The notes: a model not told the origin generated them from the letters alone. 64,000 nt of DNA from Candidatus Rokuibacteriota bacterium (GCA_016184365.1 JACPCW010000110.1:28611-92610); one strand, 5' to 3'. Positions 10,420 through 64,000 are shown, counted from the stretch's first letter. Numbers and translations are program-made.

Positions 10420-10470
10420 GTCGAGCCGGACCACGGCTTCGCCGGGGGCCGGCGAGCGTGTGGGGGTCTG

Positions 10471-10520
10471 GGGGCCGTCGTGGCCCCCAGTGCGATCGAT
10501 TCGCCGGTCCCCGGGGGACC
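10471..10520. repeat. two GC-rich hairpins in treT-GT spacer
   Basis: TGGGGGCC-GTCGT-GGCCCCCA and GGTCCCC-G-GGGGACC perfect inverted repeats. Confidence 0.45.
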
Positions 10521-10570
10521 CGGGGCCCGGCCCTACGTTCGGATCAAGCGCGTCGGCCATCAGATCCCCG

Positions 10571-17689: not shown

Positions 17690-17696
17690 CGGCGTG

Positions 17697-18938: not shown

Positions 18939-18942
18939 GGGA

Positions 18943-20646: not shown

Positions 20647-20728
20647 CGAATGCCTTTCCTGATCAGGGCCGGGAGTGCCGCACCTCGTCCGATCGAACGT
20701 CGGGGTCGCTCGCGATCAATTGGACCGT
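20647..20728. promoter_or_regulatory. divergent intergenic/promoter region (GH57-BE operon <-> treZ)
   Basis: 82-bp spacer between divergent start codons. No confident -10/-35 read. Confidence 0.3.
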
Positions 20729-22628: not shown

Positions 22629-22692
22629 TTGAACTGGGGGGCCCCGACATGGCCCCCCAGACCCCCCAACGCTCGGAGCGCCGCGGGAAACC
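22629..22692. repeat. 64-bp GC-rich hairpin repeat, copy 2
   Basis: ttgaacTGGGGGGCCccgacatGGCCCCCCAgacccccc..cgcgggaaacccgcg, ~85% identical to 7141-7204. Confidence 0.7.
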
Positions 22693-22712
22693 CGCGACGC
22701 TCCTCGACAACC

Positions 22713-26282: not shown

Positions 26283-26359
<77 letters not shown>

Positions 26360-26440: not shown

Positions 26441-26836
26441 TCGTCGATGTTCCAGCAGCGCGCTCAACCTCGGACCCGCGCAAGCCTGAAAATCGAAGGT
26501 ACTCGCTCGAGTCTCGTATTTGCCTGGACAGGACGCGCACAGGAATTGAGGTCCTGGTTACGCTTCGTCTTTTCCGAGGATTGTGACGAACGTGGCCGGG
26601 CTCACGATGGGGACGCTCCGAGACCGTCTGATGGCCGGCACGGCGCCGTCCCGGGACGCGTACGCCGGCGGCAGCGACCGCCTCAAGGAATTCGACGACG
26701 TCAGGCCTCGGTCATCCACGTCGTTCTCTGATCCACCGCTCGTAGAAGGTCTTGCCCTGGGCGACCCCAGCGCTGTGGCGATCTTTGGACATTGTCGTCA
26801 TTCCGGCCCGCGCCTGTGTCGCCGCTATGTCCCTCA

Positions 26837-26934
26837 GCCACTCCTCGAAGCGCGGCTCGCTGACGGCGAGACCTTCGAGGAGATCGCCCCGGTAGAGCGT
26901 CGCCGCCTCGTCGAGCGCCTCGGGCGTTGCTGCC
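26837..26934. repeat. 98-bp direct repeat (SARP BTAD-domain fragment), copy B
   Basis: Near-identical to 27523-27620. Minus strand encodes AATPEALDEAATLYRGDLLEGLAVSEPRFEEWL, then diverges. Confidence 0.7.
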
Positions 26935-26946
26935 GGCGGCCGGCGC

Positions 26947-27215
26947 ATGACCGAGTGCGCCGCCCGCCTGGTCGACGAGGTGCTGCCGCGGGTACCCGTG
27001 CGCCAGTGGGTGCTGACCCTACCGTGCCGGCTGCGCTCTCTGCTGGCGTGGGATCACGGGCTGGCGCGCGCCGTGCTCGGCGTAGCTGTGCGCGTGTTGC
27101 TCTGCTTCCAGCGTCACCGCGCCCGCCGCTACGGCGTTCGCGACGGGCGATCGGGCTCGGTGACGGTCATCCAGCGCTTCGGGGGCGGACTCAATCTGAA
27201 TGTCCACTTATGCGC
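26947..27215 (+). pseudogene. IS91-family (HUH rolling-circle) transposase remnant
   Basis: ..VPVRQWVLTLPCRLR.. and ..VTVIQRFGGGLNLNVHL.. are hallmark IS91 transposase blocks. Only ~90 aa remain, internally shortened. Confidence 0.5.
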
Positions 27216-27288
27216 TGGGGTTCGGCGTCGCATACGTCCGGGTGCGGACACGCCTGCCCGGCCGGCATCTGGCGGCGGCGGCGGCATC

Positions 27289-27876
27289 CTACACCGTCAT
27301 CTTGCCGTCGGTGGCGTTCGTGACCGGCTGATCGCGCTCGCGCGCGTGCTGCCGATCGTCGTGCGCAGCGTCGAGGATGGCCTCGGCCAGATCGAGCGCG
27401 CCCTCGAGGAGGCGGCAACGACCTGCGGCGCCGGATGGCGGCGTCGGTCGGTCCGGCGCGCGTGGGATGCGCGAGGAGCCTCGCCAGCGCTTCGAGGACG
27501 AGCTCGCGGAGGCGCTCGCGCTCGGCGAGCAGCCACTCCTCGAAGCGCGGCTCGCTGACGGCGAGACCTTCGAGGAGATCGCCCCGGTAGAGCGTCGCCG
27601 CCTCGTCGAGCGCCTCGGGCGTTGCTGCACCCGGTCGGCGACGAGGATGTCGGCGTTGCGGAGCGCTCGGAGGGCATGGCGCAGGCTGTCGCGTGCCTGC
27701 GTCGTGCCGGCGTCAACCCACAGCAAGGCAGCGAGCTTGTCCCGGGGATGGCGCTGGCCGGGGTTGAGGGCGAGGTACGCGAGCAGCGCCTGGGCCTTGG
27801 CGGGCAAGGCGAGAGCGGCTCCGGCCGGGAGCCGGAGCTCGAAGCCGCCCAGCAGGTCGAGGCGGAGGCGCTCCAT
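27289..27876 (-). pseudogene. SARP-family regulator fragment (partial tandem duplicate, frameshifted)
   Basis: MERLRLDLLGGFELRLPAGAALALPAKAQALLAYLALNPGQRHPRDKLAALLW.. (wHTH) then a frameshift into the 98-bp repeat (copy A 27523-27620). Upstream region (27880-27990) also resembles the intact gene's promoter (ggaactataga box). Confidence 0.6.
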
Positions 27877-28002: not shown

Positions 28003-31000
28003 TCAACCCGGCGGCACGTCGAGCTCGCGAGCGACCTGGCCGGTCCGGGCGACCCACGCGGGCAATCCGAGCCCGGTGAACAGCGCGCGCGCCGCGCACA
28101 GGTGCTCCGCGGCGTCGTCGCGTCCTCCGGCAGCGTGAGCGAGCCTCGCCAAGTCCAGGTGGGTCCGACCCACCTCCAGCCCGGCCTCGACGGCGGCGAA
28201 GATCGCGAGCGCCTCGCCGATCCGGGCGCGGGCGTCGGACAAACGTCCGCGCGCCTGCGCGACCCGACCCAGCCCCCGCTCGGCCCAGCCGCGCGCGTAA
28301 CGGTAGTCCACTTCGCGCGTGCTCCGGATCACCTCCACCGCCGCGGCGTGGGCGTCGTCGAGCCGTCCCTCGAGCCGATAGGCGTCGGCCAGCATGGCGA
28401 GGAACAGCCACTGCGGACGCTGCGCGCCGAAGCCCCGGCCGAGCGTGACGGCCTCTTCCAGCGTCGCCACCGCGCGCGAGACGTCACCGGCTTCGAGCAG
28501 AACGTAGCCGAGCGCAGCGATGGCGTTGACCCGGCCCACCGGATTGGGCGCGCTCGCCAGCGCGCGCTCGCAGAGGGCGACGGACGCCTCCACGTCGCCC
28601 TCGGCGGCCGAGATCCAGCCGAGCGTCCACAGTCCGTAGCTTTCGAGGTGCGCATCGGCGAGCGCCGCGCCGGTCTCGAGCAGGCGTCGGCCCGCCTCGC
28701 GCGCGGCCGTGAGCTCACCGAGCAGCGTCTGGTGGACGGCGACGATCCAGTGCGAGAGGCCAAGCCACCACCGCTCGTCGGTCCGCTCGAGTCTCGTCGC
28801 GGCCGCACGACCGTGCTCGGCACCGCTCCTGAGCGATCCCGTGAACAACGCCTCCTGGGCGAGGAGGAAGAGCGCCTTGCCCGCCGTGACGTCGTCGCCG
28901 CACCGCGTGGCTTCCTCGAGCGCACGGCGGGCGCACGCCACGGACGCCCCGTGGTCGCCGAGGACGCCGCGCATCCGGCCGAGGAGGAAGTAGTACGGCG
29001 CGGTCGCGGCGGGATCGGCCAGACGCTCGACGCGTGGCCCTGCGCTGACCAGCAGCTCGACGCTCGTGGCGATGCGCCCCAGGAAATAGTGCGCCTGGGC
29101 CAGGCGGAGAACGAGCGGGACGTAGCGCCGGTCCCGCTCGTCGGCTGCGAGGCGGTCGGTGCGGCGGAGAGCTTCCTCCATCGAGCTCACCGCGTCGGCG
29201 AGCGCGTAGCTCCGGGTCGCCCGATCGGCGAACCGGGTGAGGTACTCCACGGCCTTGGCCTCGTCCGTGGTGCGGGAATAGTGGTACGCGAGCTGGTCGG
29301 CGACCTCGTCCAGGCGCTGCCGGTTGAGCGCTTCGAGCGCGCGGGCCACCGCGGCGTGGAGCATCTGGCGCTTCGGCTTCAGCACGCCCGCGGCGATCAC
29401 CTGGCGGATGCGGTCGTGGGTGAAGTCGAATCCATCCCCGGCACCGTGCAGGATGCGGCGTCGGACCAGCTCCTCGATGCCTTCCGCAGCCTCCGACTCC
29501 GCGCGCCCGCTGGCGCGCTGGAGCAACGGGAACTCGAACTCGCGGCCGATGACCGCCGCCACCGCCGCGAGCTCCCGCCCGCGGTCGCTGAGCCGCTCCA
29601 GGCGGCTCGCGGTCAGGGCCCGCACGCTGTCTGGAAGCGGCGCTGGCGCCGCCGAGAGTGCCGAGGCCGTGCGGTCGGCGAGCGCGCGCACCATCTCGAC
29701 GATGACGAACGGGTTGCCCTCACTCACCTGCCAGACTCGTTCTCCGAGTCGGGCGATGGTCTCGGCGTCGCCGCCCACCCGGCTCAGCGAGCGTACCAGG
29801 CGCGCGGTGTCCTCGGCGGAGAGCGGGGCCAGCGGCAGCGGAGTGAAGGACGCCTCGCATCCGAGCTCGTCCAGGATGTTGCGAAGCAAGGGGCCGCGAT
29901 CCAGATCCTCTTCGCGCGCGGTGAGCACGAGCAGCGTTCGCGCGGTTGGCAGTCGCCGGCCGAGGAAGGCGATGAGGCGCAGGGTCATCTCGTCCGCCCA
30001 GTGGACGTCCTCGAGCATCAGGACGAGCGGCTGGGGGGCGGCGAGACGGGAAAGCAGCTGGCCCACGGCCTCGAAGAGCCGGAGGTAATCGTCGCCGGGC
30101 GAAGGGAGGCCGGGGACGGCGACCTCGGGCAGCACGCGGGCGAGCTCGCTACGCCAGACCGGTTCGAGGGCGTCGAGCAGCGCCTCGTCGGCGACGACCT
30201 GGCCGGTGCGGAAGGCGTCCACCCAGGGGCCGAAGGGAAGGATCTGCTCGCTCTCGTACGACCGGCCGAGGAGCACGCGGGCACCCCGGTGTTCGGCCTC
30301 CGCGGCGAGGGCGCGCACCACGGTCGTCTTGCCGACGCCGGCCTCGCCCACGATGGCGACGACTCGCCCGCGACCCCGTTGCGCCTCGTCGAGCGCGTTG
30401 CGGAGCGTCACCAGTTCGGCGGCGCGGCCGACGACGGGCGTGTCGGGCGTGACGCCGTCCCCGCGCATAGCGGCGGCCGGCAGACGTGCTGGCTCCCGGC
30501 TCCAGGGTGACGCACGGGGAGCGAGACCCTCGGGCCGCCGCAGGATCTCCTGATAGAGCTCGCGGGTCTCCGCCTCCGGCTCGGCCCCGAGCTCGCGATC
30601 GAGCACGCTTACACAGACCTGGTACTGCCGCAATGCGGCCCCGCGCCGCCCCTGGCGCGCGTAGAGCCGCATCAGCGCGCGATGGACGGCTTCCTGGAGG
30701 GGATCGAGCGACAGGAGCCGGGAGGCGACCACCACGGCGCGCTCGGTCGACCCGGCCTTCGCGTGGAGCGCGAGGAGCTTCGCGAGGGTCTCGAGCGCGA
30801 GCTCGCGTAACCGCTCGCGCTCGGCGAGCAGCCACTCCTCGAAGCGCGGCTCATTCACCGCGAGGCCTTCGAGCAGGTCACCCCGGTAGAGATCGGCGGC
30901 CTCCGCGAGCGCCTCGGGGGTGCCGGCCGTGACGCACCGCTCGAACCGGACGACGTCGACGTCCAGCGCATCGGGATCGACGGCGAAGCCGGCGGAGTCG

Positions 31001-31236
31001 GTGCTCACGAGCCGGGCCGTGCGGAGCGAGCGGGCGGCGTGGCGCAGGCTGTCGCGCGCCTGGATGTCGCCGGCGTCGCCCCACAGCAGGGCCGTGAGCT
31101 TGTCGCGGGGATGGCGCTGGCCCGGGTGGAGGGCGAGGTACGCGAGGAGCGCCCGGGCCTTGGCGGGCACGGCCACAACGTCTCCGGTGGGGATCCGGAG
31201 CGCGAAACCACCCAGCAGCTCGAGGCGGAAGGTCAT
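28003..31236 (-). CDS. SARP/AfsR-family transcriptional regulator (wHTH + BTAD + NB-ARC ATPase + TPR)
   Basis: 1077 aa starting MTFRLELLGGFALRIP. Walker A ..IVGEAGVGKTT... C-terminal TPR-like region. Confidence 0.85.
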   Translation of the reverse strand: MTFRLELLGGFALRIPTGDVVAVPAKARALLAYLALHPGQRHPRDKLTALLWGDAGDIQARDSLRHAARSLRTARLVSTDSAGFAVDPDALDVDVVRFERCVTAGTPEALAEAADLYRGDLLEGLAVNEPRFEEWLLAERERLRELALETLAKLLALHAKAGSTERAVVVASRLLSLDPLQEAVHRALMRLYARQGRRGAALRQYQVCVSVLDRELGAEPEAETRELYQEILRRPEGLAPRASPWSREPARLPAAAMRGDGVTPDTPVVGRAAELVTLRNALDEAQRGRGRVVAIVGEAGVGKTTVVRALAAEAEHRGARVLLGRSYESEQILPFGPWVDAFRTGQVVADEALLDALEPVWRSELARVLPEVAVPGLPSPGDDYLRLFEAVGQLLSRLAAPQPLVLMLEDVHWADEMTLRLIAFLGRRLPTARTLLVLTAREEDLDRGPLLRNILDELGCEASFTPLPLAPLSAEDTARLVRSLSRVGGDAETIARLGERVWQVSEGNPFVIVEMVRALADRTASALSAAPAPLPDSVRALTASRLERLSDRGRELAAVAAVIGREFEFPLLQRASGRAESEAAEGIEELVRRRILHGAGDGFDFTHDRIRQVIAAGVLKPKRQMLHAAVARALEALNRQRLDEVADQLAYHYSRTTDEAKAVEYLTRFADRATRSYALADAVSSMEEALRRTDRLAADERDRRYVPLVLRLAQAHYFLGRIATSVELLVSAGPRVERLADPAATAPYYFLLGRMRGVLGDHGASVACARRALEEATRCGDDVTAGKALFLLAQEALFTGSLRSGAEHGRAAATRLERTDERWWLGLSHWIVAVHQTLLGELTAAREAGRRLLETGAALADAHLESYGLWTLGWISAAEGDVEASVALCERALASAPNPVGRVNAIAALGYVLLEAGDVSRAVATLEEAVTLGRGFGAQRPQWLFLAMLADAYRLEGRLDDAHAAAVEVIRSTREVDYRYARGWAERGLGRVAQARGRLSDARARIGEALAIFAAVEAGLEVGRTHLDLARLAHAAGGRDDAAEHLCAARALFTGLGLPAWVARTGQVARELDVPPG

Positions 31237-31286
31237 GACCGGGCAGTCGGAACTATAGATTGATCGCCCTGCCTCCCTTCCGCGCA

Positions 31287-31317
31287 TTTTTCCGGTGCGA
31301 TTCCCAGGTTTTTCCGG
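31287..31317. promoter_or_regulatory. direct repeats TTTTTCCGG x2 at 22-bp periodicity in divergent promoter (candidate SARP-binding site)
   Basis: tttttccgg at 31287-31295 and 31309-31317, lying between the SARP start (31236) and the small ORF (31341). Confidence 0.35.
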
Positions 31318-31340
31318 CTCGGCCCGGTACAAGGGGCGCC

Positions 31341-31532
31341 GTGACGTTCATCGTCCGGCTGTCCAGCGACGCCGCCGGCCGCGTCACCGGCATCGTCGAG
31401 CGCGTCAGGAACGGCCAGAAGGAACGCTTCGAGGGGCTCGAGGGCCTGGCGCCGGCGCTCGCGCGGATGGCGCGGCCGGAGGACTTCGCGCCGGCCGTCG
31501 AAGGGACCCGAACGGAAGGAGAACTGCGATGA
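31341..31532 (+). CDS. small hypothetical protein (63 aa) coupled to collagen-like gene
   Basis: GTG start with AAGGGG RBS-like sequence upstream. Stop overlaps the downstream ATG (ATGA). Confidence 0.3.
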
Positions 31533-32902
31533 GCACGACCCGCACCTGGCACACCACGATGGTTGTCGGAGCACTGATCGCGCTCACCGCGATGATGCTC
31601 GCGCCCGGCGGCGGAGCGCGGCCCCACGTCGCCTTCGCGCATGGCGGCGATGCCGGCGTCATTCACGCCTGCGTCCAGCAGGGCAGCCAGCAGGTTCGCA
31701 TCGTCGGGCCCGCCGAGAGCTGCCGCGGTCCGGAGACGGCGGTGCACTGGTCGATTGTCGGACCGATCGGCCCGGCGGGTCCCGTCGGCCCGGCCGGGCC
31801 TCAGGGGCCTCAGGGACCCAAAGGCGACAAGGGCGATCAAGGCGCGACGGGGCCGCAAGGTGTCGCCGGGCCGGTGGGACCGGCAGGCCCGCAAGGACCG
31901 ACGGGATCCACCGGCGATACCGGGCCGCAAGGATCTCAGGGTGTGGCGGGGCCGTCGGGTCCCGCCGGCCCGGCCGGGCCGCAGGGTGCGAAAGGTGACA
32001 GGGGCGACCCCGGTCCGGTCGGGCCGCAAGGACCTCCAGGTCTGTCGGGCACGTTCGTCGGCGATGTCACCACGGTCGAGGACACGGCGCTCGGCACCAT
32101 GACCGATACGAGCCGCGTCACCGTGACGATCGGTGGCATCGGGACTTTCACGCCGGTCGCCATGTCCAGGATCGGCTTCGACGTGGCCGTGGTCGAGTTC
32201 GACGCGGCGGGAATCTGGCGCGAGTTCGGTCCCGGGATCGTCACGCCCCGAAACGTGACCTTCCGAGGGCTGGTTGGCTCGTCGCCGAGTTCGGCACTCG
32301 ACGGCTGGGTCAGGGACGTTGCCGACGGTCGAGTCGACCGGAGGGACATCACCCTCACCGTGGCGAGCAAGGGGACGACAACGTTCCAGCTGATCTTGCA
32401 GAACTGCCTCCCGATCGCATCCCAGCCGTTCGCGTTCGACGCTCTCGATCCGAACCTCACCTACGGCGAGCTGACCGTCACGCTCCAGGCAATCGAGATC
32501 GTGACGTTCGACCTGCCTCCCGTTTCGGCTCGCGCACTGGTGCAGGCCGATCGGGGAAACGATGGATGGGTCCAGCTGGCGGCCGGTGGGCTCGAAGGTG
32601 GTGCGATCACGATCGATCCTTCGAGCAAGAGCGTCACGCCCATCAGGCTGACATCGGTCACCCCGCTCGCCGGAGAGGGGCCGCCAGCGTTCCTCCTGTG
32701 GCTAGCGGACCTCGTCGAGGGGAGCCCGACCGCGGTCACCGCCTCGGTCCTGGTGAACACCGTGGCCAAGGACGGCTCGGTGGAGCCGCGCCTCTCGTAC
32801 GTGGACGTGTTCCCCACGCGGGTCACGTTCTTCAACCCGCTCCGGCCCGACGACCTCGGGGTCACGATCGACGTGACCCTGCAGGCCAACCGGATCCCCT
32901 GA
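31529..32902 (+). CDS. secreted collagen-like protein with two C-terminal phage-tail-tube (T4 gp19 / eCIS tube)-like domains
   Basis: GGAAGGAGA RBS. Signal peptide [30 protein letters not shown]. About 35 uninterrupted G-X-Y triplets. Then two tandem ~140-aa domains matching the tail-tube pattern (..[29 protein letters not shown]..; ..[25 protein letters not shown]..). Confidence 0.8.
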
Positions 32903-32933: not shown

Positions 32934-35900
32934 ATGACGCTGTGGAGCACCGTCGTCCGGACCGTGATCGCGTTCCTCCGCCCGGGGCTCGCCGCGCTGG
33001 TCATCCTCGGCGTCGCGGTCTTGGAGCCTCCTGCCGCCTTCGCCGCCGCGATCGTCGTCACCACGCTCGACGACGGGATGAACAGCGACGGCGACTGCTC
33101 GCTGCGGGAGGCGATCACCGCTGCCGACACGAACGTGCCGGTGGACGGCTGCCCCGCTGGCAGCGCCTCGTCGATGGACACGATCACGTTCGCGGTCGGC
33201 GGGACGATCGCGCTCGGCGCGGCCCTCCCGGACATCGCCGACCCGGCCGGGGTGACCATCGACGGCTCCGGGGCCATCGCGATCACCGGCGGCGCGGGCC
33301 GGATCGTGAGAGTGCTGCCGTGCGCCCGGCTCGACCTGCACGGGCTCGTCGTGACCGAGACGGTCGGCGACGCGGTCCTGAACGACGGCCACCTCTCGGT
33401 CGTCGACACGGTCTTCCGCGGCACGAAGGGCAACGCGATCAACACCACGGGGCCCACGAACGTCAGCGGCAGCCTCTTCGCGAGCAACGGCCGCGGCATC
33501 TCGGCCAACCGAGCGACGGTGAGGATCCTGAGCAGCGCGTTCACCGACAACCAGGACGGCTTCTACGGCGCCTCGGCGCTCTGGGTCACCTTCAGCACGG
33601 TGACGATCGCCCGGAGCACGTTCACCGACAACCGCGGCGGGGAACGCGGCGCGATGCTCCTCTACGGGAGCACCGCCACGATCACCGACAGCACGTTCCG
33701 GAACAACCGGGCGTACCGGCAAGACATCGACGCGCGCGGGGGCGCCATCGAGAGCTCGGGCACGACGCTCGTCGTCGCCGGCAGCACGTTCGTCGACAAC
33801 TATGCGTTGTATGTCGGGCTCAACGGCGCCCACGCCCGGGGCGGCGCGCTGCACGTCGACCACGGCGCGGTCACCGTGAGCAACAGCACGTTCGTCGCCA
33901 ACCTGGCGCTGGCGTACAACTACAACGGGTTCAGCCGCGCCTTCGGCGGCGCCATCCAGACCAGGGGAGGCTCCGGCACCGTCGACCTCGTCAACTCGAC
34001 CTTCGCCGATAACCAGGCGCGGAGCCACTCCGGCTCGAGTGAGCCGCGCCCCGACCTGAGCGCCGGCGGCACGATCCATCGCGAGGGCCTGACCGTGACG
34101 CTCCGGAACACGCTCGTCGCCAAGGCCCTGGACGGTACCTGGGACGCGGTGCCCGCCTGCTTCGGCGCGCTGGTGGACGGCGGCGGCAACCTCTCGAGCG
34201 ACGGAACCTGCCCGGGCCTGCACGCCGACCCGCTGCTCGACCCGGCGGGGCTCGAGGACAACGGCGGTCCCACGGAGACGATCGCGCTCCAGCCGGGAAG
34301 CCCGGCGATCGCGGCCGGCGTCGGCGCGACGTGCGCCGCCGCGCCCGTGAACGGCGTCGACCAGCGCGCCGCACTGCGGCTCTCCTGCGACGTCGGCGCG
34401 TTCGCGTACGCGTCGGCGGCGCCGCCGGTGTCGGCGCCCGACGCCCTGCCTCCGCTCCCGGCTCAGTCCGGGTGTCCCGTCTTCAACCAGCCGCCGGTCG
34501 TCACGAACCCGGGCGACCAGACGAGTGCCGAGGGCGGCGCACCGTCGCTCCAGATCGGCGCGAGTGACCCGGACGGTGACGCGATCGGCTACGCGGCGGT
34601 GGGCCTGCCGCCCGGCCTGGCGATCGACGCCGCGACTGGCCTCGTGACGGGGATGCTCGGCTACGATGCGGCCGGCTCGTACGGCGTGACCATCACCGTC
34701 ACCGACGCGCGCGGGGCCAGCTCGAGTGTGAGCTTCACGTGGGCGGTGACGGACGTGAACCGTCCGCCGGCGGTCACGAACCCAGGGAGCCAGACGAGCG
34801 CGGAGGGGACGAGCCCCTCGCTGCAGATCAGCGCGAGCGACCTCGACGCAGACGCCCTCACGTACTCCGCGACGGGTCTGCCGCCGGGGCTTGGCATCGA
34901 CGCGGCGACCGGGCGCATCGCCGGCACCCTCGGCTACAGCGCGGCCGGTACGTACGCGGTGACGGTCAGCGTCAGCGACGGCAGCGGCGGCTCGGCCTCG
35001 GTCTCGTTCACGTGGACGGTCGCCGACATCAATCGCGCGCCGATCGCCCGGGCCGACTCGGCGACGACCGTCGAGGACACGCCCGTCACCGTCAACGTGC
35101 TGGCCAACGACGACGATCCCGACGGCGACGCGCTGACCGTGCTCGGCGTCGCGCAGCCGTCGCGCGGGACCACGCTCCTGAACGCCGACGGCACCGTGAC
35201 CTACGTCCCGGCGTCGAACTTCAACGGGTCCGACGGCTTCAGCTACACGATCCGCGATGCGCTCGGCGCCACGGCGACGGCGACGGTGACGCTCCAGGTG
35301 ACGCCGGTGAACGATCCGCCGACGCTCGCTCCGATCGCCGACCAGACCCACACGGTGGGCCAGGCGGTCACGCTCGATGTCGTCGCCGCGGACGCCGACG
35401 GCGACGGCCTGAGCTTCACGGCCACCGACCTCCCGGCCGGCATCACGGTGAATCCCGCGACCGGCACGATGTCGGGCGTGCTGCAGGCGCCGGGCGCGCA
35501 CCAGGCGACGGTGACCGTGTCCGACGGCAACGGCGGTCGCGCCAGCGCGTCGTTCCGCTGGAGTGCCGTCACGGCGAACCGGCCGCCGGTCTGCACGGCG
35601 ACGGCGAGCCCGTCGGTGATCTGGCCGCCGAACCACAAGCAGAAGGTCGTCGTCCGCCTCGTGGGTGTCGCCGATCCCGACGGCGACCCGGTCAGCGTCA
35701 CCATGACCGGCATCCTGCAGGACGAGCCGACCAACACGCTCGGCGACGGCGAGACGTGGATCGACGGCGGTGGGGTCGGGACCTCGGAGGCGTGGGTGCG
35801 CGCCGAGCGCTCGGGAACGCCGCGCGTGCCTGGTAACGGCCGGGTCTACGAGATCCTCTACAGGGCCGAGGACGGTCACGGCGGCTCGTGCACGGGTTCG

Positions 35901-36011
35901 GCGCTGGTCGGCGTGCCCCACGACCAAGGCAAGGGGCCGGCGATCGACGACGGCATCCGGTACGATTCGACGGTCGCGGGAGGCCCGCGCGCAGTGCGTC
36001 CTACCAGATGA
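32934..36011 (+). CDS. large secreted adhesin-like protein (CSLREA motif, beta-helix repeats, 4x putative Ig domains, cadherin-like domains)
   Basis: GAGGAGG RBS. Signal peptide. ..DGDCSLREAITAAD... Repeated N-S-T-F/beta-helix motifs. Four ..GLPPGL.IDAATG.. Ig repeats. ..VLANDDDPDGDALTV... Confidence 0.8.
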   Translation: MTLWSTVVRTVIAFLRPGLAALVILGVAVLEPPAAFAAAIVVTTLDDGMNSDGDCSLREAITAADTNVPVDGCPAGSASSMDTITFAVGGTIALGAALPDIADPAGVTIDGSGAIAITGGAGRIVRVLPCARLDLHGLVVTETVGDAVLNDGHLSVVDTVFRGTKGNAINTTGPTNVSGSLFASNGRGISANRATVRILSSAFTDNQDGFYGASALWVTFSTVTIARSTFTDNRGGERGAMLLYGSTATITDSTFRNNRAYRQDIDARGGAIESSGTTLVVAGSTFVDNYALYVGLNGAHARGGALHVDHGAVTVSNSTFVANLALAYNYNGFSRAFGGAIQTRGGSGTVDLVNSTFADNQARSHSGSSEPRPDLSAGGTIHREGLTVTLRNTLVAKALDGTWDAVPACFGALVDGGGNLSSDGTCPGLHADPLLDPAGLEDNGGPTETIALQPGSPAIAAGVGATCAAAPVNGVDQRAALRLSCDVGAFAYASAAPPVSAPDALPPLPAQSGCPVFNQPPVVTNPGDQTSAEGGAPSLQIGASDPDGDAIGYAAVGLPPGLAIDAATGLVTGMLGYDAAGSYGVTITVTDARGASSSVSFTWAVTDVNRPPAVTNPGSQTSAEGTSPSLQISASDLDADALTYSATGLPPGLGIDAATGRIAGTLGYSAAGTYAVTVSVSDGSGGSASVSFTWTVADINRAPIARADSATTVEDTPVTVNVLANDDDPDGDALTVLGVAQPSRGTTLLNADGTVTYVPASNFNGSDGFSYTIRDALGATATATVTLQVTPVNDPPTLAPIADQTHTVGQAVTLDVVAADADGDGLSFTATDLPAGITVNPATGTMSGVLQAPGAHQATVTVSDGNGGRASASFRWSAVTANRPPVCTATASPSVIWPPNHKQKVVVRLVGVADPDGDPVSVTMTGILQDEPTNTLGDGETWIDGGGVGTSEAWVRAERSGTPRVPGNGRVYEILYRAEDGHGGSCTGSALVGVPHDQGKGPAIDDGIRYDSTVAGGPRAVRPTR

Positions 36012-36166
36012 CTTCGACGAGTCCCGAGTGGCGGATATCGGGATCGCGCGACAAGAGCGGCAGGTTCAAATGGCGCGCCGCTGCACAGATCAGGGCGTCA
36101 AATGGATCGCGATTCGGACGGTGCGCGTCGGCGTCGTAGATCTGCTCGGGAGTCAGGTCGAACGAG
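35990..36166. repeat. 172-bp direct repeat copy 1 (3' end of a PIN-toxin gene, minus strand)
   Basis: ~97% identical to 39598-39775. Minus strand encodes ..DPFDALICAAARHLNLPLLSRD.DIR.SGLVEVIW*. Confidence 0.75.
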
Positions 36167-39401: not shown

Positions 39402-39597
39402 ATGAGCGACGCCGTGAAGCTCGCCGTCGGCCTGACGTACGCGCGATCGGTGATGGCCACAGACGACCTCACCCCGGCGCACCTGCGTGGCGACCCGATC
39501 CGGGTCCTGTCGACGCCCGACATGATCCGGCTCATCGACCAGACGGCGATCGAGGCATCAAATGCGCGACAGCTGGCACATCCTGGCCGCGACACGC
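39402..39597 (+). pseudogene. hotdog-fold thioesterase 5' fragment
   Basis: MSDAVKLAVGLTYARSVMATDDLTPAHLRGDPIRVLSTPDMIRLIDQTAIEA resembles a FlK/PaaI-like N-terminus. Truncated at repeat copy 2. Confidence 0.35.
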
Positions 39598-39775
39598 GCA
39601 GTGCGTCCTACCAGATGACTTCGACGAGTCCCGAACGGCGGATATCGGAATCGCGCGACAGTAGCGGCAGGTTCAAATGGCGCGCCGCTGCACAGATCAG
39701 GGCGTCAAATGGATCGCGATTCGGACGGTGCGCGTCGGCGTCATAGATCTGCTCGGGAGTCAGGTCGAACGGTTG
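39598..39775. repeat. 172-bp direct repeat copy 2 (3' end of intact PIN-toxin gene)
   Basis: See 35990-36166. Confidence 0.75.
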
Positions 39776-40009
39776 ATACGCCGGACTGCTGAAGAGGTCG
39801 GCGCAGAATTCGCCGAACGACCGCTGCAGGTCGACCCGATTCGCCGACGCGAGCAGCGAGCACTCCCACAGCACCGCGACGGGGACGTAGACGACCGCGG
39901 CCCGACGTTCCGCCGCCTCGAACACCGCGGCGGCGCGTCGTCCGAGTCGGCGACTCGCGGCAGCGTGAAACAGCAAGGGATGCGTGTCGGTGACGGCCGC
40001 TTCAACCAC
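39608..40009 (-). CDS. PIN-domain toxin
   Basis: GTG start overlaps the antitoxin stop (GTGGTTGA). ..VTDTHPLLFHAA.. and a C-terminal ..DPFDALICAAARHLNLPLLSRDSDI... Confidence 0.7.
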   Translation of the reverse strand: MVEAAVTDTHPLLFHAAASRRLGRRAAAVFEAAERRAAVVYVPVAVLWECSLLASANRVDLQRSFGEFCADLFSSPAYQPFDLTPEQIYDADAHRPNRDPFDALICAAARHLNLPLLSRDSDIRRSGLVEVIW

Positions 40010-50812: not shown

Positions 50813-52402
50813 CTAGCCCTCGACCGAGACGTTCCAGTAGAGGCTCGCCGGGAACGTCAGCACGCCCTTCACGTTCTTGCGGTACGCCGTCGGCTGCGTC
50901 CACTGGCCCCACGGCACGTACGGCACCTCGTCGTACGCGAGCGTCTGCACCTGCTCGGCGATCTGCTTGCGCTTGCCCTGGTCCGTCGCGCGAATCCAGT
51001 CGTGCCGCAGCTTCTCCATCTGCTCCGAGCAGTACCAGCCGAACCAGGCCTTGTCGCACGCGCCCGACAGGCCGGTGTTCACGGCGGGCGTCATGACGTC
51101 CGGGGAGATCCACGTCGCCATCATCAAGTTCCAGCCGCCGGCGCTCGGCGGATCCTTCTTGCTGCGCCGGGCGATGACGCTCGCCCAGTCCGACGCTTGA
51201 AGATCCACGTTGACGCCGATCTTGCCGAGCAGCTCGCGCGTGACGAGCGACGAGCCGTGCAGGCTCGGGTTGTCGGCGGGGTCGAGCAGCACGATCGGCT
51301 TGCCGTCGTAGCCGCTCTCCTTCATGAGCTGCCGCGCGCGCTCGAGATCCGGCTTGCGCGGCGCGCCGGCGGCCGTCTCGTACGGCGTGCCGCACATGTA
51401 GTACGTCGGGCACGTGCGGTAGTACTTCGGGTTGCCGATGACCGTCTGGAGGTACATCTCCTGGTCGACCATGTGCAGCAGCGCCTGCCGCGCCTTCTTG
51501 TTGTTGAACGGCGGGAACAGGTGGTTCGGCCGCACCCAGCCCTGGATGCCGCCGGGATTCTTCACGAACACGGTGATGTTCGGATTCTTCTCGAGGCGCG
51601 TCGCGAAGTCGGCGGGCGGGTTGTCCCACCAGTCGATCTCACCGGCCTCCAGCGCCGCGCTCGCGGTCGCCGCATCGGGGATGTAGCGCGCGATCACGCG
51701 GTCGACGTTCGCGCGCTTGCCGCCGGCGGCGCCGCTCGGGTTCTCGTTGCGCGGCACGTAGCCCTCGAAGCGCGTGTACACCACCTGGTTGCCGGGCTGC
51801 CACTCGTCCTTCACGAACCGGTACGGGCCGGAGCCGACGACTTCCTTGATCTGCTGGTTGGCGTCGGTCGAGGCCAGCCGCGCGGGCATGATGAACGGCA
51901 CGTTGCTCGAGGGCTTGCCGAGCGCGTCCAGCACCGCGCCGAACGGCTCCTTCAGCTCGAGCACGAACGTCTTCTTGTCGGTCGCGGCGAGCTTGCCGGT
52001 GGCGGCCATCATCAGCTTGCCGAGCGAGTCCTTCTTGCCCCAGCGCGCGAGCGACACGACGCAGTCCTCGGCGGTCACCGGAGAACCGTCGTGGAACTTG
52101 AGGCCGTCGCGGAGCGTGAACGACCACTTCATGTGGTCCTTGCTCGTCGTCCACTTGTCCACCATCTGCGGCTTCACGTTCAGGTTCGCGTCGCTCGCGA
52201 ACAGCGTGTCGTACACGAGGTATGCGTGATCGCGGGTGACGTAGGCCGTCGTCCAGATGGGGTCGAGGACCTTGAGGTCGGCGATCGGGACGATGCGGAT
52301 GGCGCCGCCGCGCTTCTGCGCGCGGGCGGAGGGCGCCACCGCGACCGCGCCGGACACGGTCGCTGCGCCGATCAGGAATGCTCGTCGCGAAATGCGTGCC
52401 AT
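50813..52402 (-). CDS. ABC transporter substrate-binding protein, family 5 (peptide/opine type), Tat signal
   Basis: GAAGGAGG RBS. MARISRRAFLIGAATVSGAVAVAPSARA. Confidence 0.85.
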   Translation of the reverse strand: MARISRRAFLIGAATVSGAVAVAPSARAQKRGGAIRIVPIADLKVLDPIWTTAYVTRDHAYLVYDTLFASDANLNVKPQMVDKWTTSKDHMKWSFTLRDGLKFHDGSPVTAEDCVVSLARWGKKDSLGKLMMAATGKLAATDKKTFVLELKEPFGAVLDALGKPSSNVPFIMPARLASTDANQQIKEVVGSGPYRFVKDEWQPGNQVVYTRFEGYVPRNENPSGAAGGKRANVDRVIARYIPDAATASAALEAGEIDWWDNPPADFATRLEKNPNITVFVKNPGGIQGWVRPNHLFPPFNNKKARQALLHMVDQEMYLQTVIGNPKYYRTCPTYYMCGTPYETAAGAPRKPDLERARQLMKESGYDGKPIVLLDPADNPSLHGSSLVTRELLGKIGVNVDLQASDWASVIARRSKKDPPSAGGWNLMMATWISPDVMTPAVNTGLSGACDKAWFGWYCSEQMEKLRHDWIRATDQGKRKQIAEQVQTLAYDEVPYVPWGQWTQPTAYRKNVKGVLTFPASLYWNVSVEG

Positions 52403-60553: not shown

Positions 60554-60757
60554 CTCGCACCTCCCTGGTCTCGTCCGAGCCGTGGTGCCGCATTAAGGAG
60601 CGTCGCAGGAACACGAGTCAATGAGGCAGACGTCTCATGGACCCGGAAATGACCCCCCGCCCGCGGTCCCGCGCCCGCCACGCGCGGGGCAGGCGCGTAC
60701 AAGAACTCGGCACGTCCGTGCATTGAGCGCTCGCGCGCGCCGCTTCACGATGCGCGC

Positions 60758-61957
60758 ATGAACTACGACGCTCGCCCGCCGTCGAAGTCCTGGGAAGCCG
60801 GTCGACTCGTCAGCGTCTGGATCAAACCGACCGAGCGCTGTCAGCTCCGGTGCGCGCACTGCTTCGTGAACCAGGAATACCTGCGGTCGAGTCGCAAGTG
60901 GGACGTCGCCACCTTCGAGCGGATCGTCGTGCGCTTCCAGGAGTACTTCCGGGCGCATCCCGTGCCGGGACGCACGATGCAGCTCGTGTGGCACGGCGGC
61001 GAGCCGCTGCTGATGGGGCCGGCGTTCTTTCGCGATGCGATGCCGCGCGTCCGTGCGCTGCTCGGCGAGGTCGGCGTGACCGTGCGCACCGCGATCCAGT
61101 CGAACCTCCTGCTGATCGATCGCGAGTGGCTCGCGCTCCTGCGCGACGAGTTCGGCGGTGGCATCGGGACGTCGTTCGACTGGGGACTCCGCAACCTCGC
61201 CGGCAGCTGGGAGGCGTTCCGCGACCGGTGGCTCGACAAATACCGGCAGTGTCGCGACGCGGGCGTCGCCGTCGGCGCCATCACCGTCGTGAATCGCGCG
61301 TGCGTCGATCGGCCCGACGAGGTCTACGACTTCTTCGGCGCGCTCGGGTGTCCCTTCGAGACGTATCCGATGGCGCCGTGGGGCGAGGGGAACGGCAAGG
61401 CGAACATCGGGACGTACGGCATCAGCGCCGACGAGTACGGGCGCTGGCTCGTGCGTATCTGGGAGCGCTATCGCGACGACCCCGCGCCGCGCGCGCGGCC
61501 GGTGTTCCTCGATCGTCTGGCGCGGGCGGTCGCGCTCGGCGAGCCGGTCGGCAACCACATGGCCGGTGACTGCGCCGCCGGCAATCTCGTCGTGTCCACC
61601 GACGGCACCGTCTCGTACTGCCCGGCGCTGGCCGGCTCGCGCGAGCATCTCTACGGCAACCTGCTCGACACCGATCTCGCGACGCTGCTGCACAGTCCCG
61701 TCCGCCTGACCGTCTTCCGGCGCCAGCTCCTGCTCCCCGACGAATGTCGCGAGTGCTCGTGGAGCCGCATCTGTCACGGCGGGTGTCCGGCCGACGCGCT
61801 CGGATTCCTCGGCGACGCGCTCCGCAAGGACCCGTACTGCGCCGCGTACCTTCGCGTGTTTCCCGTCATCGCCGACGACCTCGCGCACGGACGCGTCCCC
61901 GCGCCACTGCGGCCGGTGATCGCGGACGCCGCGCGCGTCGCCGCGCTCGTGTCATGA
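60758..61957 (+). CDS. radical SAM enzyme with SPASM auxiliary domain
   Basis: CX3CX2C (..ERCQLRCAHCF..) plus C-terminal CX2CX5CX3C (..CRECSWSRICHGGCP..). Stop overlaps the downstream ATG (ATGA). Confidence 0.8.
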   Translation: MNYDARPPSKSWEAGRLVSVWIKPTERCQLRCAHCFVNQEYLRSSRKWDVATFERIVVRFQEYFRAHPVPGRTMQLVWHGGEPLLMGPAFFRDAMPRVRALLGEVGVTVRTAIQSNLLLIDREWLALLRDEFGGGIGTSFDWGLRNLAGSWEAFRDRWLDKYRQCRDAGVAVGAITVVNRACVDRPDEVYDFFGALGCPFETYPMAPWGEGNGKANIGTYGISADEYGRWLVRIWERYRDDPAPRARPVFLDRLARAVALGEPVGNHMAGDCAAGNLVVSTDGTVSYCPALAGSREHLYGNLLDTDLATLLHSPVRLTVFRRQLLLPDECRECSWSRICHGGCPADALGFLGDALRKDPYCAAYLRVFPVIADDLAHGRVPAPLRPVIADAARVAALVS

Positions 61958-64000
61958 AAGTCGCGGCCGCCCTGGCGGCGATGTGCGCGCTCGGCGCGCT
62001 GGCGGCTGCCGGCGAGGCGGCCGGCAGCGCGCAGGTCGACGCCGCGCGCAGCCGGGGGCTGGCCTGGATGCTGACGCACCAGCGCGCTGACGGCAGCTGG
62101 CGCGGCCCGGCCGGCTCGGAGTTCGTCGCGACCGCGACCGCGATCGAGGCGCTCGAGATCAGTGGCGTGAAGAGCTACCCGTATGCCGCCGGCGTGGCAT
62201 GGCTGGGCAATGCGCATCCGAGCAGCGTCGATTCGCTCGCACGGCAGGTGATCGCGACGGCCACGGCCGGTCTCGACGTGACCTCCGCCGCGGAAACGTT
62301 ACGCGCGTGGCGCAACCCGAGCTTCGGGTGGGGCGCGTACGCGCGCTACGACACGACGTTCCCCGACACCGCGCTCGCGCTCACGGGGCTACGCCTCGCG
62401 CAGCTCGCCGCGCCGGACAGCGAGATCGAGGCGGCGCTGTGCCTGGTCGCGAGCGCGCAGAACGCCGGCGAGGCATCGGTGCACGGCAGCTGGTCGTACG
62501 TTCGGCCGGCGGGCGGCACGGCGCCGCCGTCGGCGCGCGGCGCCATCGTCCCGACCGTCTACAACCTGCTCGAGATCGACGCGACGAGCCGCGCGCGCGG
62601 CTGGACGTCGCTCGGCTCGTGTGCCGGCACGACGTATGGCGTCGCGACGATCGTCGACGCCGGTCTTGCGTGGCTGCTCTCGACGCGCCGTCACGCCGAC
62701 GGCGGCTTCGGTGACGGCGGTGTCAGCGAGGTGCTCGAGACGGCGCTCGTCTATCGGGCGCTGACCGCGCTTCGGCCGAACGATGCGGCGACCGCCGCGG
62801 CGCTCGACTTCCTGGTCGAGCGCCAACGCCAGGACGGCAGCTGGAGCGCCGACGTGCTGCACACCGCGACGGTGCTCGCGGCGCTTCCGTCGCCGGCTGC
62901 GGCACTGGCCGACAGCGATCGCGATGGGGTGCCGGATACGGTCGAGACGAGTCTGCCGACCGATCCGAACGTTCCTGACAGCCGATGGCTCGCGCGCGGA
63001 CGAAACGCGCGTCAGGTTCCGACACCGGGCGCGGCGAACGACTTCGGCCTCGTCGCCATCGCTGCCGCGGCGGGTGCTGCGACCACCGCGTCGGATAGCG
63101 ACGGGTCCCCGACGGGCGTGGCCGCGGGCACGTCTTCGCCGCCGTCGCGGCCCGACCCACTGACGCTGGGCGTGCCGTCCGAGCGCTTCGGACTTGACCC
63201 CTTGACTGGCGCGGCACGGGTCGAGCTGCCGCTCGTCGTTCCGGTCGGCGCCGGCCGGCTCGCGCCGAGTCTCACGCTTCGCTACGACAGCGGGGCGGTC
63301 GACGAGCTCGCCGTGAGCGCGCCGGCGGCGATGACGGGACTCGGCTGGACGCTCGACGTCGGTCCCGTCATCGTCCGCGATCCGCGCGACACGGTCGCGA
63401 CGGCCGACGACGCGTTCACGCTGCTGCGGGACGGCGCGCGTCACGACCTCGTCGTCGTCGATGCGGCGGCGTCGCTCTATCGCACGCGCGACGACACGTT
63501 CGTCCGGCTCGAGCACGACCGCAGTGCCGACGCGTGGACGCTCACGACGAAAGACGGCGTCGTCTGGCGGATGGGATCGACGGCGGCGAGCCGGACGACG
63601 ACGCTCGGTCCCGATCGGGCCACTCCGGTGACGCGCGCGTATCACGTGGACGAGATGCGGACACCGAGTGGTGTCTCCGTCCGCCACACGTACACGAAAC
63701 AGCCCGCGACGCTTCCGAGCGGCCAGACCTACGACCAGGCGATCTACCCGGCGACGATGGCGTGGGCGTCTGTCGGCGGCGCGCCCGTCGGCACGCCGCG
63801 CGAGGTGACGTTCACATACGGAGACCGATCCGACTGGCCCGCTGACGCCGGGACGCCGGCGTTCGTCGACAGACAACGCCTGGAGTCGCTCACGATCCGC
63901 GTCGGGACCGCGGTCGTGCGCACCTACGTCTTCGCGTACGACCATTCCATCGACCGTGATCCCGGGGCCGTCTGGGCCGGTGGCGCCACCGGGGATCTCA
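61954..64000 (+). CDS. giant secreted protein, 5' partial: QW-repeat alpha/alpha-toroid domain + TSP3-like Ca motif + SpvB/TcB-like domain
   Basis: Signal peptide MKVAAALAAMCALGALAAAG. QW motifs (RGLAWMLTHQRADGSWRG; ALDFLVERQRQDGSWS). DSDRDGVPD. SpvB-type ..LAPSLTLRYDSGAV....GLGWTLDVGPVI... Open to window end. Confidence 0.75.
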   Translation, partial: MKVAAALAAMCALGALAAAGEAAGSAQVDAARSRGLAWMLTHQRADGSWRGPAGSEFVATATAIEALEISGVKSYPYAAGVAWLGNAHPSSVDSLARQVIATATAGLDVTSAAETLRAWRNPSFGWGAYARYDTTFPDTALALTGLRLAQLAAPDSEIEAALCLVASAQNAGEASVHGSWSYVRPAGGTAPPSARGAIVPTVYNLLEIDATSRARGWTSLGSCAGTTYGVATIVDAGLAWLLSTRRHADGGFGDGGVSEVLETALVYRALTALRPNDAATAAALDFLVERQRQDGSWSADVLHTATVLAALPSPAAALADSDRDGVPDTVETSLPTDPNVPDSRWLARGRNARQVPTPGAANDFGLVAIAAAAGAATTASDSDGSPTGVAAGTSSPPSRPDPLTLGVPSERFGLDPLTGAARVELPLVVPVGAGRLAPSLTLRYDSGAVDELAVSAPAAMTGLGWTLDVGPVIVRDPRDTVATADDAFTLLRDGARHDLVVVDAAASLYRTRDDTFVRLEHDRSADAWTLTTKDGVVWRMGSTAASRTTTLGPDRATPVTRAYHVDEMRTPSGVSVRHTYTKQPATLPSGQTYDQAIYPATMAWASVGGAPVGTPREVTFTYGDRSDWPADAGTPAFVDRQRLESLTIRVGTAVVRTYVFAYDHSIDRDPGAVWAGGATGDL

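Follow-up and report, generated by a model that had tools for sequence, protein, structure and literature searches.

Genes at the end of the window

The DNA analyzed here, hereafter the window, is a stretch of 64,000 nucleotides (nt) from a metagenome-assembled genome (MAG) of Candidatus Rokubacteria (GCA_016184365.1, JACPCW010000110.1:28611-92610), an uncultured soil bacterium whose phylum is not known to have cultured members. The system in question lies at the 3' end of the window, where a gene for a radical S-adenosylmethionine (SAM) enzyme with a SPASM domain (rSAM) is followed by the gene of a large secreted protein of the RHS/YD-repeat type that continues past the window end. The known role of SPASM radical-SAM enzymes is to mature short peptides or sulfatases, and RHS/YD shells are regarded as containers that fold around, and then free, their own C-terminal toxin; this locus unites both classes.

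The enzyme (coordinates of features are collected in Table 1) carries only the name 'radical SAM protein' in its NCBI entry, MBI2206397.1. Both cysteine motifs that a first-pass annotation, made from the sequence alone, had assigned to it, the CX3CX2C of the SAM-binding cluster and the CX2CX5CX3C of the SPASM domain, lie where they had been placed, and the corresponding models pass their cut-offs: Pfam Radical_SAM PF04055 scores 34.6 bits (gathering cut-off 29.5), SPASM PF13186 scores 25.9 bits (cut-off 21.5) and the NCBIfam SPASM domain TIGR04085 scores 49.5 bits (cut-off 27) over residues 272-361. Motif and PF04055 together place the enzyme in the radical SAM superfamily, and the seven-cysteine motif with PF13186 and TIGR04085 places it in the SPASM subfamily. 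C28-x3-C32-x2-C35 is invariant in 16 of 16 aligned family members, and neither the seven SPASM cysteines nor G283 vary in the same alignment. The seven-cysteine pattern indicates two predicted auxiliary [4Fe-4S] clusters in addition to the SAM-binding one.

The stop codon of the enzyme gene overlaps the start codon of its partner in an ATGA, as had been claimed, and the TCATGA junction is kept in a second metagenomic locus, L008, whose enzyme is 91% identical. L008:844-3196 aligns to window positions 60695-63056 at 86% identity (blastn), with different contexts upstream, where the window has a TRAP dctP gene in divergent orientation and L008 a PIN/VapC-like fragment. Because the ATGA overlap is conserved while the flanks of the window and L008 differ, the genes of the operon travel as a unit. 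A promoter scan turned up no sigma-70-like promoter.

A secreted RHS shell without a toxin tip

Within the window the partner reading frame stays open for 682 codons, in agreement with the roughly 680 first reported. Its continuation was read from the Logan contig L001 (a single mismatch to the window across 4041 nt), and there the complete protein measures 1796 amino acids (aa) (L001:1995-7385; NCBI entry MBI2206398.1, 'hypothetical protein HYU41_21410'). The architecture anticipated for its first part was borne out at each point. The protein begins with a signal-like N-terminus, judged by eye, as was its L008 counterpart (MRAIAVAMLVLAALSTRVDA). Two QW-type motifs follow (QRADGSW at residue 43 and QRQDGSW at residue 291), accompanied by a SQHop_cyclase_C match of 28.7 bits (cut-off 26.1). 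Then come a putative thrombospondin-type calcium loop that fits DxDxDGxxDxxE and an SpvB-like domain scoring 25.2 bits on the window part and 22.3 bits on the full protein (cut-off 22). The D, G and E positions of the calcium loop are invariant in the homolog alignment, and one homolog (P0057) is named 'Bacterial TSP3 repeat' by JGI; the window part of the protein gave no Pfam TSP match at E<=0.1.

An AlphaFold2 (AF2) model of residues 27-345, with a predicted local distance difference test score (pLDDT) of 90, forms a single alpha/alpha-toroid. Foldseek's best PDB matches are class II terpene cyclases consisting of one domain, namely 8PAK/8PAJ, MstE and drimenyl-PP synthase (template modeling score ~0.63, E 1e-9), so that toroid and QW motifs together give a class II terpene cyclase-like fold. 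The catalytic DxDD acid motif is missing from the toroid, the equivalent segment reading SFPDTA here and in the homolog consensus (aligned by eye). Since DxDD is replaced by SFPDTA and further secreted multidomain proteins, those carrying dockerin, Ig or TSP3 modules, have the domain too, the toroid probably serves for binding, without the catalytic function of a cyclase.

Beyond the window the protein is an RHS/YD-repeat shell, with RHS_repeat PF05593 at 194.7 bits in 9 stretches and YD_repeat TIGR01643 at 161 bits; TcdB_toxin_midN reaches 22.8 bits (cut-off 24.8). The first-pass description of the partner as polymorphic-toxin-like therefore holds for the repeats but not for the C-terminus, which lacks both a DPxG motif and a toxin tip. 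In L001 the protein ends '...LNEYSYAANNPATPPGFAESDP' (also read as '...RLYDATLGRFLDADAEVRDLAPLQALNEYSYAANNPATPPGFAESDP'), its stop lying ~10 aa after NNP, the point at which DPxGL and then the toxin are found in canonical RHS proteins. Neither of the two DPxG cleavage motifs is present, DADA and PPGF occurring instead (DADA...NNPATPPGFAESDP*), and the Rhs core model TIGR03696 falls short of its cut-off (26.2 against 32.5 bits), matching at model positions 33-68 of 76 only. Neither a toxin tip nor an immunity-like small gene follows the RHS gene in L001. The next gene encodes a TPR protein with a signal-like N-terminus, whose best NCBIfam match is FxSxx_TPR at 130.8 bits (cut-off 300), and the gene after that is unrelated, YbaK-like by eye. 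The operon thus comprises three genes, for the rSAM enzyme, a tipless RHS protein and a secreted TPR protein, of which the first two lie at the window end.

With RHS polymorphic toxins and the TcB-TcC cocoon of Tc toxins, the window protein shares the SpvB-like N-terminus, the long YD/RHS run, the terminal Rhs-core segment and an inserted three-repeat module. It differs from them in being without DPxG, tip and immunity-like gene, and in having a Sec signal, an N-terminal toroid and a TPR gene after it. No PAAR, VgrG or TcA context was seen among the neighbors, which are unrelated genes; no search aimed at TcA was made. Teneurin YD shells are not known to release an enzymatic toxin and are combined with extracellular binding modules. 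The window protein resembles them in being a YD shell with binding modules and no released toxin, whereas teneurins are eukaryotic, have other accessory domains and no known rSAM partner.

Placement of the enzyme among SPASM families

A search of 5.8 billion proteins returned 24 close relatives of the enzyme at 64-92% identity, after which identity drops to 32% or less. Among 1.84 billion 50%-cluster representatives searched with HMMER, close matches were confined to two fragments and the representative of the enzyme's own cluster (74-82% identity); past the clade, the best match scored 158 bits at ~33% identity, and outside the clade none exceeded ~36% among the matches listed. A profile search of GTDB species genomes (one per species) found no relative. 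The clade is tight, and its members are known only from metagenomes and environmental assemblies.

The enzyme fails all curated NCBIfam subfamily cut-offs, scoring 172.7 bits with DynA, the best model (cut-off 450), 129 bits with TIGR03942 for anaerobic sulfatase-maturating enzymes (anSMEs; cut-off 349.45), the second best, 95 bits with DarE (cut-off 650) and 83 bits with FxsB (cut-off 370). The nearest proteins outside the clade resemble DynA or anSME in their turn, and most of them score under cut-off. Identity between the enzyme and a true DynA (P0073, 555 bits) reaches only 29%, and among solved structures the closest in sequence is anSMEcpe, 4K36/4K37 (E 1e-18). Judged by these scores and identities, the clade is a new SPASM subfamily.

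The anSMEs (AtsB/ChuR; PDB 4K36-4K39) are like the enzyme in length class, in being without an N-terminal RiPP recognition element (RRE) domain, and in combining CX3CX2C with the full seven-cysteine SPASM motif for two auxiliary clusters. They act on whole proteins in the cytoplasm, before export. Formation of formylglycine on an exported protein, by the enzyme as an anSME homolog, would accord with this mode of action, with the closest structure and second-best model just named, and with one minimal S-x-P-x-R string, SPPSR, in the linker of the RHS protein (63136-63150, residues 395-399). The first-pass annotation had seen no sulfatase motif in the partner; this string qualifies that statement, while the absence of a sulfatase domain stands. 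The string lies in a variable linker and is at chance expectation, ~2 such strings being expected in 1796 aa by a rough estimate. Moreover, the anSME score is far under its cut-off, no C/S-x-P-x-R motif is conserved, no Pfam Sulfatase gene occurs in any called family locus, the window offers ornithine cyclodeaminase-family and TRAP genes as neighbors instead of a sulfatase, and the enzyme's relatives pair with Cys-rich peptides, with a protein here called X and with YcaO proteins, as described below. Formylglycine formation is therefore an explanation to which we give almost no credence.

Relatives encode a RiPP-like cassette

Most relatives lie on short metagenomic contigs, here labelled with L numbers; the cassettes described in this section (L005-L007, L009-L018 and L020/L022) encode enzymes 70-78% identical to that of the window. 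Gene order is X, rSAM, a 70-aa peptide, YcaO and RHS in L005; response regulator/AraC, X, rSAM, a 75-aa peptide, a 668-aa YcaO and a secreted protein in L006; and AraC, X, rSAM, an 80-aa peptide and RHS, with no YcaO, in L007. L018 reads regulator, X, rSAM, a 62-aa peptide and a secreted protein, and L009 reads X, rSAM, peptide and YcaO, while shorter contigs show rSAM and peptide (L010-L012) or X and rSAM (L013-L016). L022 (AraC, X, rSAM) and L020 (peptide, a 707-aa SagB-like/YcaO protein, RHS) share a 28-nt overlap in the same sample and therefore form one locus. In L017 the end of an RHS gene is followed by TPR, X, rSAM, peptide and the start of a SagB/YcaO-type gene, with every junction from RHS to rSAM overlapping. 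An AraC-type regulator was seen at five loci.

A Cys-rich, precursor-like peptide is encoded directly 3' of the enzyme in 10/10 of these loci that extend past the enzyme. The small co-encoded precursor for which the first-pass annotation had proposed a search is thus found in the relatives with such cassettes, but neither in the window nor in L001. The peptides are 62-81 aa long with a signal-like leader, which resembles a long Sec signal ending in AxA. Leader and junction share an invariant LSPxAL...PW...HCxP pattern, and the Cys-rich core is hypervariable (for example NHCSPPPTCDSSCDCNACDCAGCNFTNPA). No Pfam or NCBIfam model matches the family.

Protein X, 270-300 aa in length, is encoded 5' of the rSAM gene in all nine loci that show it, and overlaps the enzyme start in 7/7 loci in which both genes were called. 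It has no Pfam, NCBIfam or PDB-sequence (profile) match. An hhalign comparison of X with the rSAM enzyme gave a weak resemblance (probability 5%, E 0.008) that sets 'YFNRLGF..ALP / RLWC.DP' on 'FFNELGC..YPMAP / RVWERYRDDP' and is collinear with the second half of the rSAM barrel; X may be a degenerate rSAM-barrel paralog. The YcaO proteins of the cassettes are SagD/TOMM-like, below cut-off, and at least one long form, that of L020, has a weak SagB-like match in its N-terminal extension. Because the other members of the enzyme family are followed by a Cys-rich peptide, preceded by X and often accompanied by YcaO, the default logic of the family is that of a system like those for peptides made on ribosomes and modified after translation (RiPPs).

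The genes after peptide or YcaO at L006:6358-7116 and L018:3746-4672 encode secreted proteins, coiled-coil-rich by eye, with 30% mutual identity. The L018 protein breaks off at '...YVANEIRFEPYYGSLK', which we take to be like the start of a transglutaminase-like core.

Several known maturation systems share parts of this cassette. DynA and DarE are the maturases of dynobactin and darobactin, and together with XyeB, GrrM, FxsB and YhhB they crosslink short ribosomal peptides encoded alongside them. The enzyme lies in the same RRE-less, anSME-like branch as these cyclophane-forming SPASM maturases, but the precursors of its relatives are rich in Cys and not in Trp or other aromatic residues, and the window is without a precursor. 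QhpD, with QhpC, and the ranthipeptide/SCIFF maturases PapB and CteB form thioethers, from Cys to Asp/Glu or other residues, in a small Cys-rich polypeptide that is then bound for the periplasm. Precursor cores rich in CD and CxxC motifs resemble this logic, yet the enzyme matches these families weakly, and only in its SPASM domain or its N-terminal core (TIGR03906 33 bits, PapB 34 bits), and dehydrogenase subunits are lacking. The FxSxx-COOH system likewise pairs an rSAM/SPASM protein (FxsB) with a TPR_12-type protein (FxsT); here, however, both models score far under cut-off, no FxSxx-COOH precursor was seen, and the TPR similarity is one of generic repeat type. A reading as a defense system was set aside, PADLOC having given only generic viperin-like and TPR matches. 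Bufferins are Cys-rich RiPPs with an N-terminal Sec-type signal that are modified in the cytoplasm by MNIO enzymes and yield a periplasmic product (PMC11626156). The full-form precursors resemble them in being Cys-rich with a Sec-type N-terminus, whereas bufferin systems employ MNIO/DUF692 and DUF2063 in place of rSAM/SPASM, X and YcaO and include no RHS protein, and the window has no precursor.

The enzyme-RHS pairing recurs

The rSAM/SPASM-RHS pairing is present in the window, L001/L002, L008, L005, L007, L017 and L022+L020, in several gene orders. An RHS gene of one family adjoins the cassette in every enzyme-clade locus that extends far enough, in four arrangements, several with stop/start overlaps. 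The window protein can be aligned from residues 390-417 onward with the RHS proteins of other loci, identity being 44-48% in a comparison with L005, L007, L019 and L020 and 44-50% in another with L005, L007 and L020; the toroid is missing from the RHS proteins of the peptide-containing loci L005, L007 and L020. The pairing is real, translationally coupled and conserved. A full-text literature search found no paper on rSAM/SPASM paired with RHS, YD repeat or YcaO, and no curated model links the enzyme with an RHS shell. The combination is undescribed, as the first-pass annotation had held, and none of the three observations that this annotation had named as refuting it was made.

The RHS family extends well beyond the enzyme. 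A scan of GTDB species genomes with the N-terminal region of the shell recovered members at 36-47% identity in Rokuibacteriota, Methylomirabilis, Deltaproteobacteria/Syntrophobacter and Chloroflexi MAGs, with no rSAM, X, peptide, YcaO or TPR gene in their flanks (up to 10 kb per side where the contig allows), and the L019 RHS gene has no rSAM within 1.8 kb upstream. Four enzyme-free members with complete C-termini (L023, L025, L027 and L028) run '...NNPxxxxDP[SD]G' into tips of 250-300 aa and have no TPR neighbor. The RHS protein of L017, by comparison, ends without DPxG only ~30 aa past the core and is followed by a TPR gene (L017:1297-2532), whose product aligns collinearly with the L001 TPR protein for 380 aa (36% identity) and shares with it a Cys immediately behind the signal. 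A tipless, TPR-linked RHS protein is found in 2/2 enzyme-linked loci with known ends (L001, L017) versus 0/4 enzyme-free ones, a co-variation with the enzyme that is suggestive at n = 6.

In both TPR proteins a Cys-Gly follows directly on the predicted signal, AVA|DCGNAKRH in L001 and LWA|SCGVAQQH in L017. This junction is loosely like the precursor junction AxA|[NS]HC, and could be lipoprotein-like or a modification site.

Enzyme and shell might also be neighbors without functional coupling, if RHS loci are recombination hotspots where an rSAM cassette tends to land. Such a history could account for the many RHS relatives that are free of the enzyme, for the differing flanks of the window and L008, and for a crude neighbor-joining (NJ) tree without support values in which the enzyme-linked RHS proteins are not monophyletic. 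It is hard to reconcile with the presence of one RHS family beside the cassette wherever a locus reaches far enough, in four arrangements with several overlapping stop and start codons, and with a TPR gene and tipless state that co-vary with the enzyme. Chance adjacency is therefore highly improbable.

The window carries a reduced form

In the window, in L001-L004 and in L008, the enzyme gene is followed directly by a toroid-bearing RHS gene. Searches of the 64-kb window with X, peptides, YcaO and TPR (tblastn) returned nothing relevant, and none of X, peptide or YcaO occurs downstream of RHS in L001. A RiPP cluster, in the sense of a precursor encoded with its maturase, is accordingly present in neither. 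One candidate within the window, a small open reading frame (ORF) of 46 aa at 60621-60761 (+) whose TGA overlaps the rSAM ATG, was rejected as a precursor; it has no Cys, starts outside the segment conserved in L008, and is probably a chance ORF in GC-rich DNA.

Because the enzymes of this reduced form nest among those of the full form (NJ tree without support values), the window form is derived, with X, peptide and YcaO lost. The only partners common to the reduced and full forms are RHS and TPR. Compared with L008, the nonsynonymous to synonymous substitution ratio (dN/dS) of the rSAM gene is 0.115 at a dS of 0.37, and that of the RHS N-terminus is 0.23. A98V/I is the sole change specific to the reduced form at columns invariant in full-form enzymes, no more than any single full-form sequence shows, and all cluster cysteines and ~130 family-invariant residues are intact in the window enzyme. 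These values indicate that the enzyme is under purifying selection and kept as a working gene without its usual neighbors.

The same observations bear on the idea that the locus is a decaying RiPP-RHS remnant, minus precursor and toxin, whose enzyme has no current substrate. The loss of X, peptide and YcaO and an RHS protein with neither tip nor cleavage motif are what decay might leave behind. Yet both dN/dS ratios are low, the cysteines and invariant residues are preserved, the 1796-aa ORF is unbroken in independent assemblies, and a tipless RHS with TPR also occurs in the full cassette L017, which together make decay very unlikely.

A window-type contig, L003, and the full cassette L018, whose enzymes are ~73% identical, come from the same run, SRR12113401; one genome might carry both.

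Proposed mechanism and substrate

We lean, with a little more confidence than doubt, toward the view that the three-gene operon is a reduced form of a conserved RiPP-cassette/RHS system that works as follows. The enzyme, a SPASM protein of the anSME/DynA branch with three clusters, would be catalytically competent, as its motifs and the purifying selection on it suggest. Acting in the cytoplasm, it would modify a Sec-bound polypeptide at or near a Cys/Asp-rich sequence, judging from the precursors and from the chemistry of neighboring families; by analogy with anSME, QhpD, ranthipeptide maturases and DynA, candidate products are a thioether or C-C/C-O crosslink, or oxidation at C-alpha or C-beta. 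In the full form, gene order suggests that the small precursor would be the target, X a peptide-specific partner, and YcaO the source of azol(in)es. The window lineage has lost X, precursor and YcaO and kept the enzyme, unaltered at family-invariant positions apart from A98V/I, in coupling with RHS. The role of the enzyme would then be tied to the RHS/TPR pair, with the RHS or TPR protein modified before export.

That the substrate in the window is the RHS or TPR protein is put forward tentatively, at somewhat less than even confidence. We favor this assignment because RHS and TPR are the only partners retained, because start/stop coupling to RHS is kept in two diverged genomes, and because a copy serving a distant peptide would duplicate the enzyme of that peptide's own locus. 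The protein-directed modification that the first-pass annotation had thought plausible remains so, arguably more so with the enzyme retained in the absence of a peptide. The three-repeat Cys insert of the RHS protein (residues 730-850) was considered as a modification site and dropped as unconvincing; enzyme-linked members have a somewhat different Cys pattern, yet L029 makes the difference less clear, and the module varies.

Several observations weigh against this interpretation. No segment resembling precursor leader or core was found in the RHS or TPR protein. In all full cassettes X is found in tight coupling with the enzyme. It may be required for activity, a point that would favor X and peptide acting in trans, and the full cassette L018 and window-type L003 possibly belong to one genome. 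The RHS family is widespread without the enzyme, and the tip correlation rests on two versus four complete C-termini. The non-monophyly of enzyme-linked RHS proteins fits the shuffling typical of RHS loci but weakens an argument from co-diversification, and the RHS phylogeny was accordingly not used as evidence of it. Nearly all relatives lie on short metagenomic contigs, and signal peptides were judged by eye.

Much of this would be expected if the enzyme matured only small Cys-rich precursors encoded with X elsewhere in the genome, its link to RHS being regulatory or ecological through a shared export compartment or function. Distant precursor genes are common in RiPP systems. A precursor directly follows the enzyme in every other clade locus that extends past it, and almost no clade-specific change has occurred at invariant positions, which points to the same type of substrate; the coupling of X and the shared run of L018 and L003 likewise agree with action in trans. 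On the other hand, X, peptide and YcaO are absent from the 64 kb upstream and the ~7 kb downstream. One would expect a second locus to have an rSAM gene of its own, as do 9/9 loci showing X, leaving the window copy redundant, whereas that copy is under purifying selection and start/stop-coupled to RHS in two diverged genomes. We therefore rank a trans-acting maturase next in likelihood, if on balance doubtful, and retain the modification of an RHS or TPR protein as the working assignment.

A more far-reaching reading, which we think unlikely, is that the radical-SAM module replaces the C-terminal toxin of the RHS cocoon, so that the tipless shell and a secreted TPR adaptor would act in the periplasm or outside the cell. 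The partner would then be a crosslinked Cys-rich RiPP, as cargo or ligand, in the full form, or crosslinks in the shell or TPR protein in the reduced form. If true, no earlier RHS system would have been matured by post-translational enzyme action, and no earlier RiPP pathway linked to the scaffold of a polymorphic toxin.

Should the link between enzyme and shell be functional, it would provide SPASM enzymes with a new substrate class (an exported shell of 190 kDa or the TPR protein paired with it) or, alternatively, mean a new way in which an RHS cocoon is armed or used, via a separately made, Sec-exported Cys-rich RiPP. Four families are left uncovered by the tested Pfam and NCBIfam models at cut-off: the enzyme clade, X, the LSPxAL...PW...HCxP precursor and the tipless RHS/TPR pair. 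All four belong to a phylum not known to have cultured members, and they offer researchers working on RiPPs and polymorphic toxins concrete constructs for co-expression.

Table 1. Coordinates of the operon and associated features (window positions unless a contig is named)
Feature	Position	Strand	Basis or remark
Radical SAM/SPASM enzyme, 399 aa	60758..61957	+	ORF; Pfam Radical_SAM and SPASM above cut-offs; MBI2206397.1
CX3CX2C motif, C28/C32/C35 (RCQLRCAHC), SAM-binding [4Fe-4S] cluster	60839..60862	+	Direct sequence reading
SPASM domain, full 7-Cys pattern	61571..61840	+	C272-x10-G283-x4-C288, C330-x2-C333-x5-C339-x3-C343, C361
5' leader of operon, 63 nt before rSAM ATG	60695..60757	+	Start of homology with L008
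ATGA stop/start overlap, rSAM TGA (61955-61957) with RHS ATG (61954-61956)	61954..61957	+	Translational coupling
Predicted Sec signal peptide of RHS protein (MKVAAALAAMCALGALAAAGEAAGSA)	61954..62031	+	Judged by eye
Single alpha/alpha-toroid, class II terpene cyclase-like fold, QW motifs	62032..62898	+	Pfam, AF2, Foldseek
Bacterial TSP3-type calcium-binding loop, DSDRDGVPDTVE, residue 320	62911..62946	+	Regular-expression fit to DxDxDGxxDxxE
TcB/SpvB-like N-terminal shell start, from ~residue 416	63199..64000, continuing past window	+	Pfam SpvB
TPR gene, 483 aa, TPR_12/TPR_10, signal-like N-terminus	L001:7382-8833		L001 sequence; GTGA overlap with RHS stop
Protein X copies	L005:5632-6540, L006:2086-2904, L007:1268-2119, L017:2529-3368, L018:1522-2349, L022:2089-2940

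Other features of the window

Upstream of the operon lie divergent TRAP transporter genes, including dctP (MBI2206396.1), an ornithine cyclodeaminase-family gene and, as judged by eye, an acyl-CoA dehydrogenase-like ORF. A segment of 110-190 nt is repeated at 35988-36164, 39595-39819 and 51880-51987 and recurs at L008:486-783, with 94-97% identity; on the minus strand it reads as the C-terminus of a PIN/VapC-like toxin (...DPFDALICAAARHLNLPLLSRDPDIRHSGLVEVIW*, by eye), and in L008 it lies directly upstream of the rSAM gene.

A glycogen/trehalose cluster occupies 5467-22504 and includes two alpha-amylase-family genes, a TreT-like trehalose synthase, two GH57 genes (one a BE_C branching enzyme) and GlgC. 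It is flanked by a 72-nt direct repeat (7147-7218 and 22635-22706, 83% identity) with a G/C-run palindrome (TGGGGGGCCCCGACATGGCCCCCCA...). The sole Rfam match is a tRNA-Phe at 26284-26359. Repeats of 186 and 215 nt with 64-84% identity, at 26742-27866 and 30736-31229, connect the short ORFs that lie at 26.7-27.9 kb with the 5' part of a BTAD/AAA_16/TPR (STAND-type) regulator at 28003-31332 (-), which suggests that they are partial paralogs of the N-terminal domain of this regulator. Further along, an ORF at 31295-32902 (+) contains collagen-like G-X-Y triplet repeats at 31769-32008, and a secreted beta-helix/PKD/Ig/cadherin protein of 1025 aa is encoded at 32934-36011.

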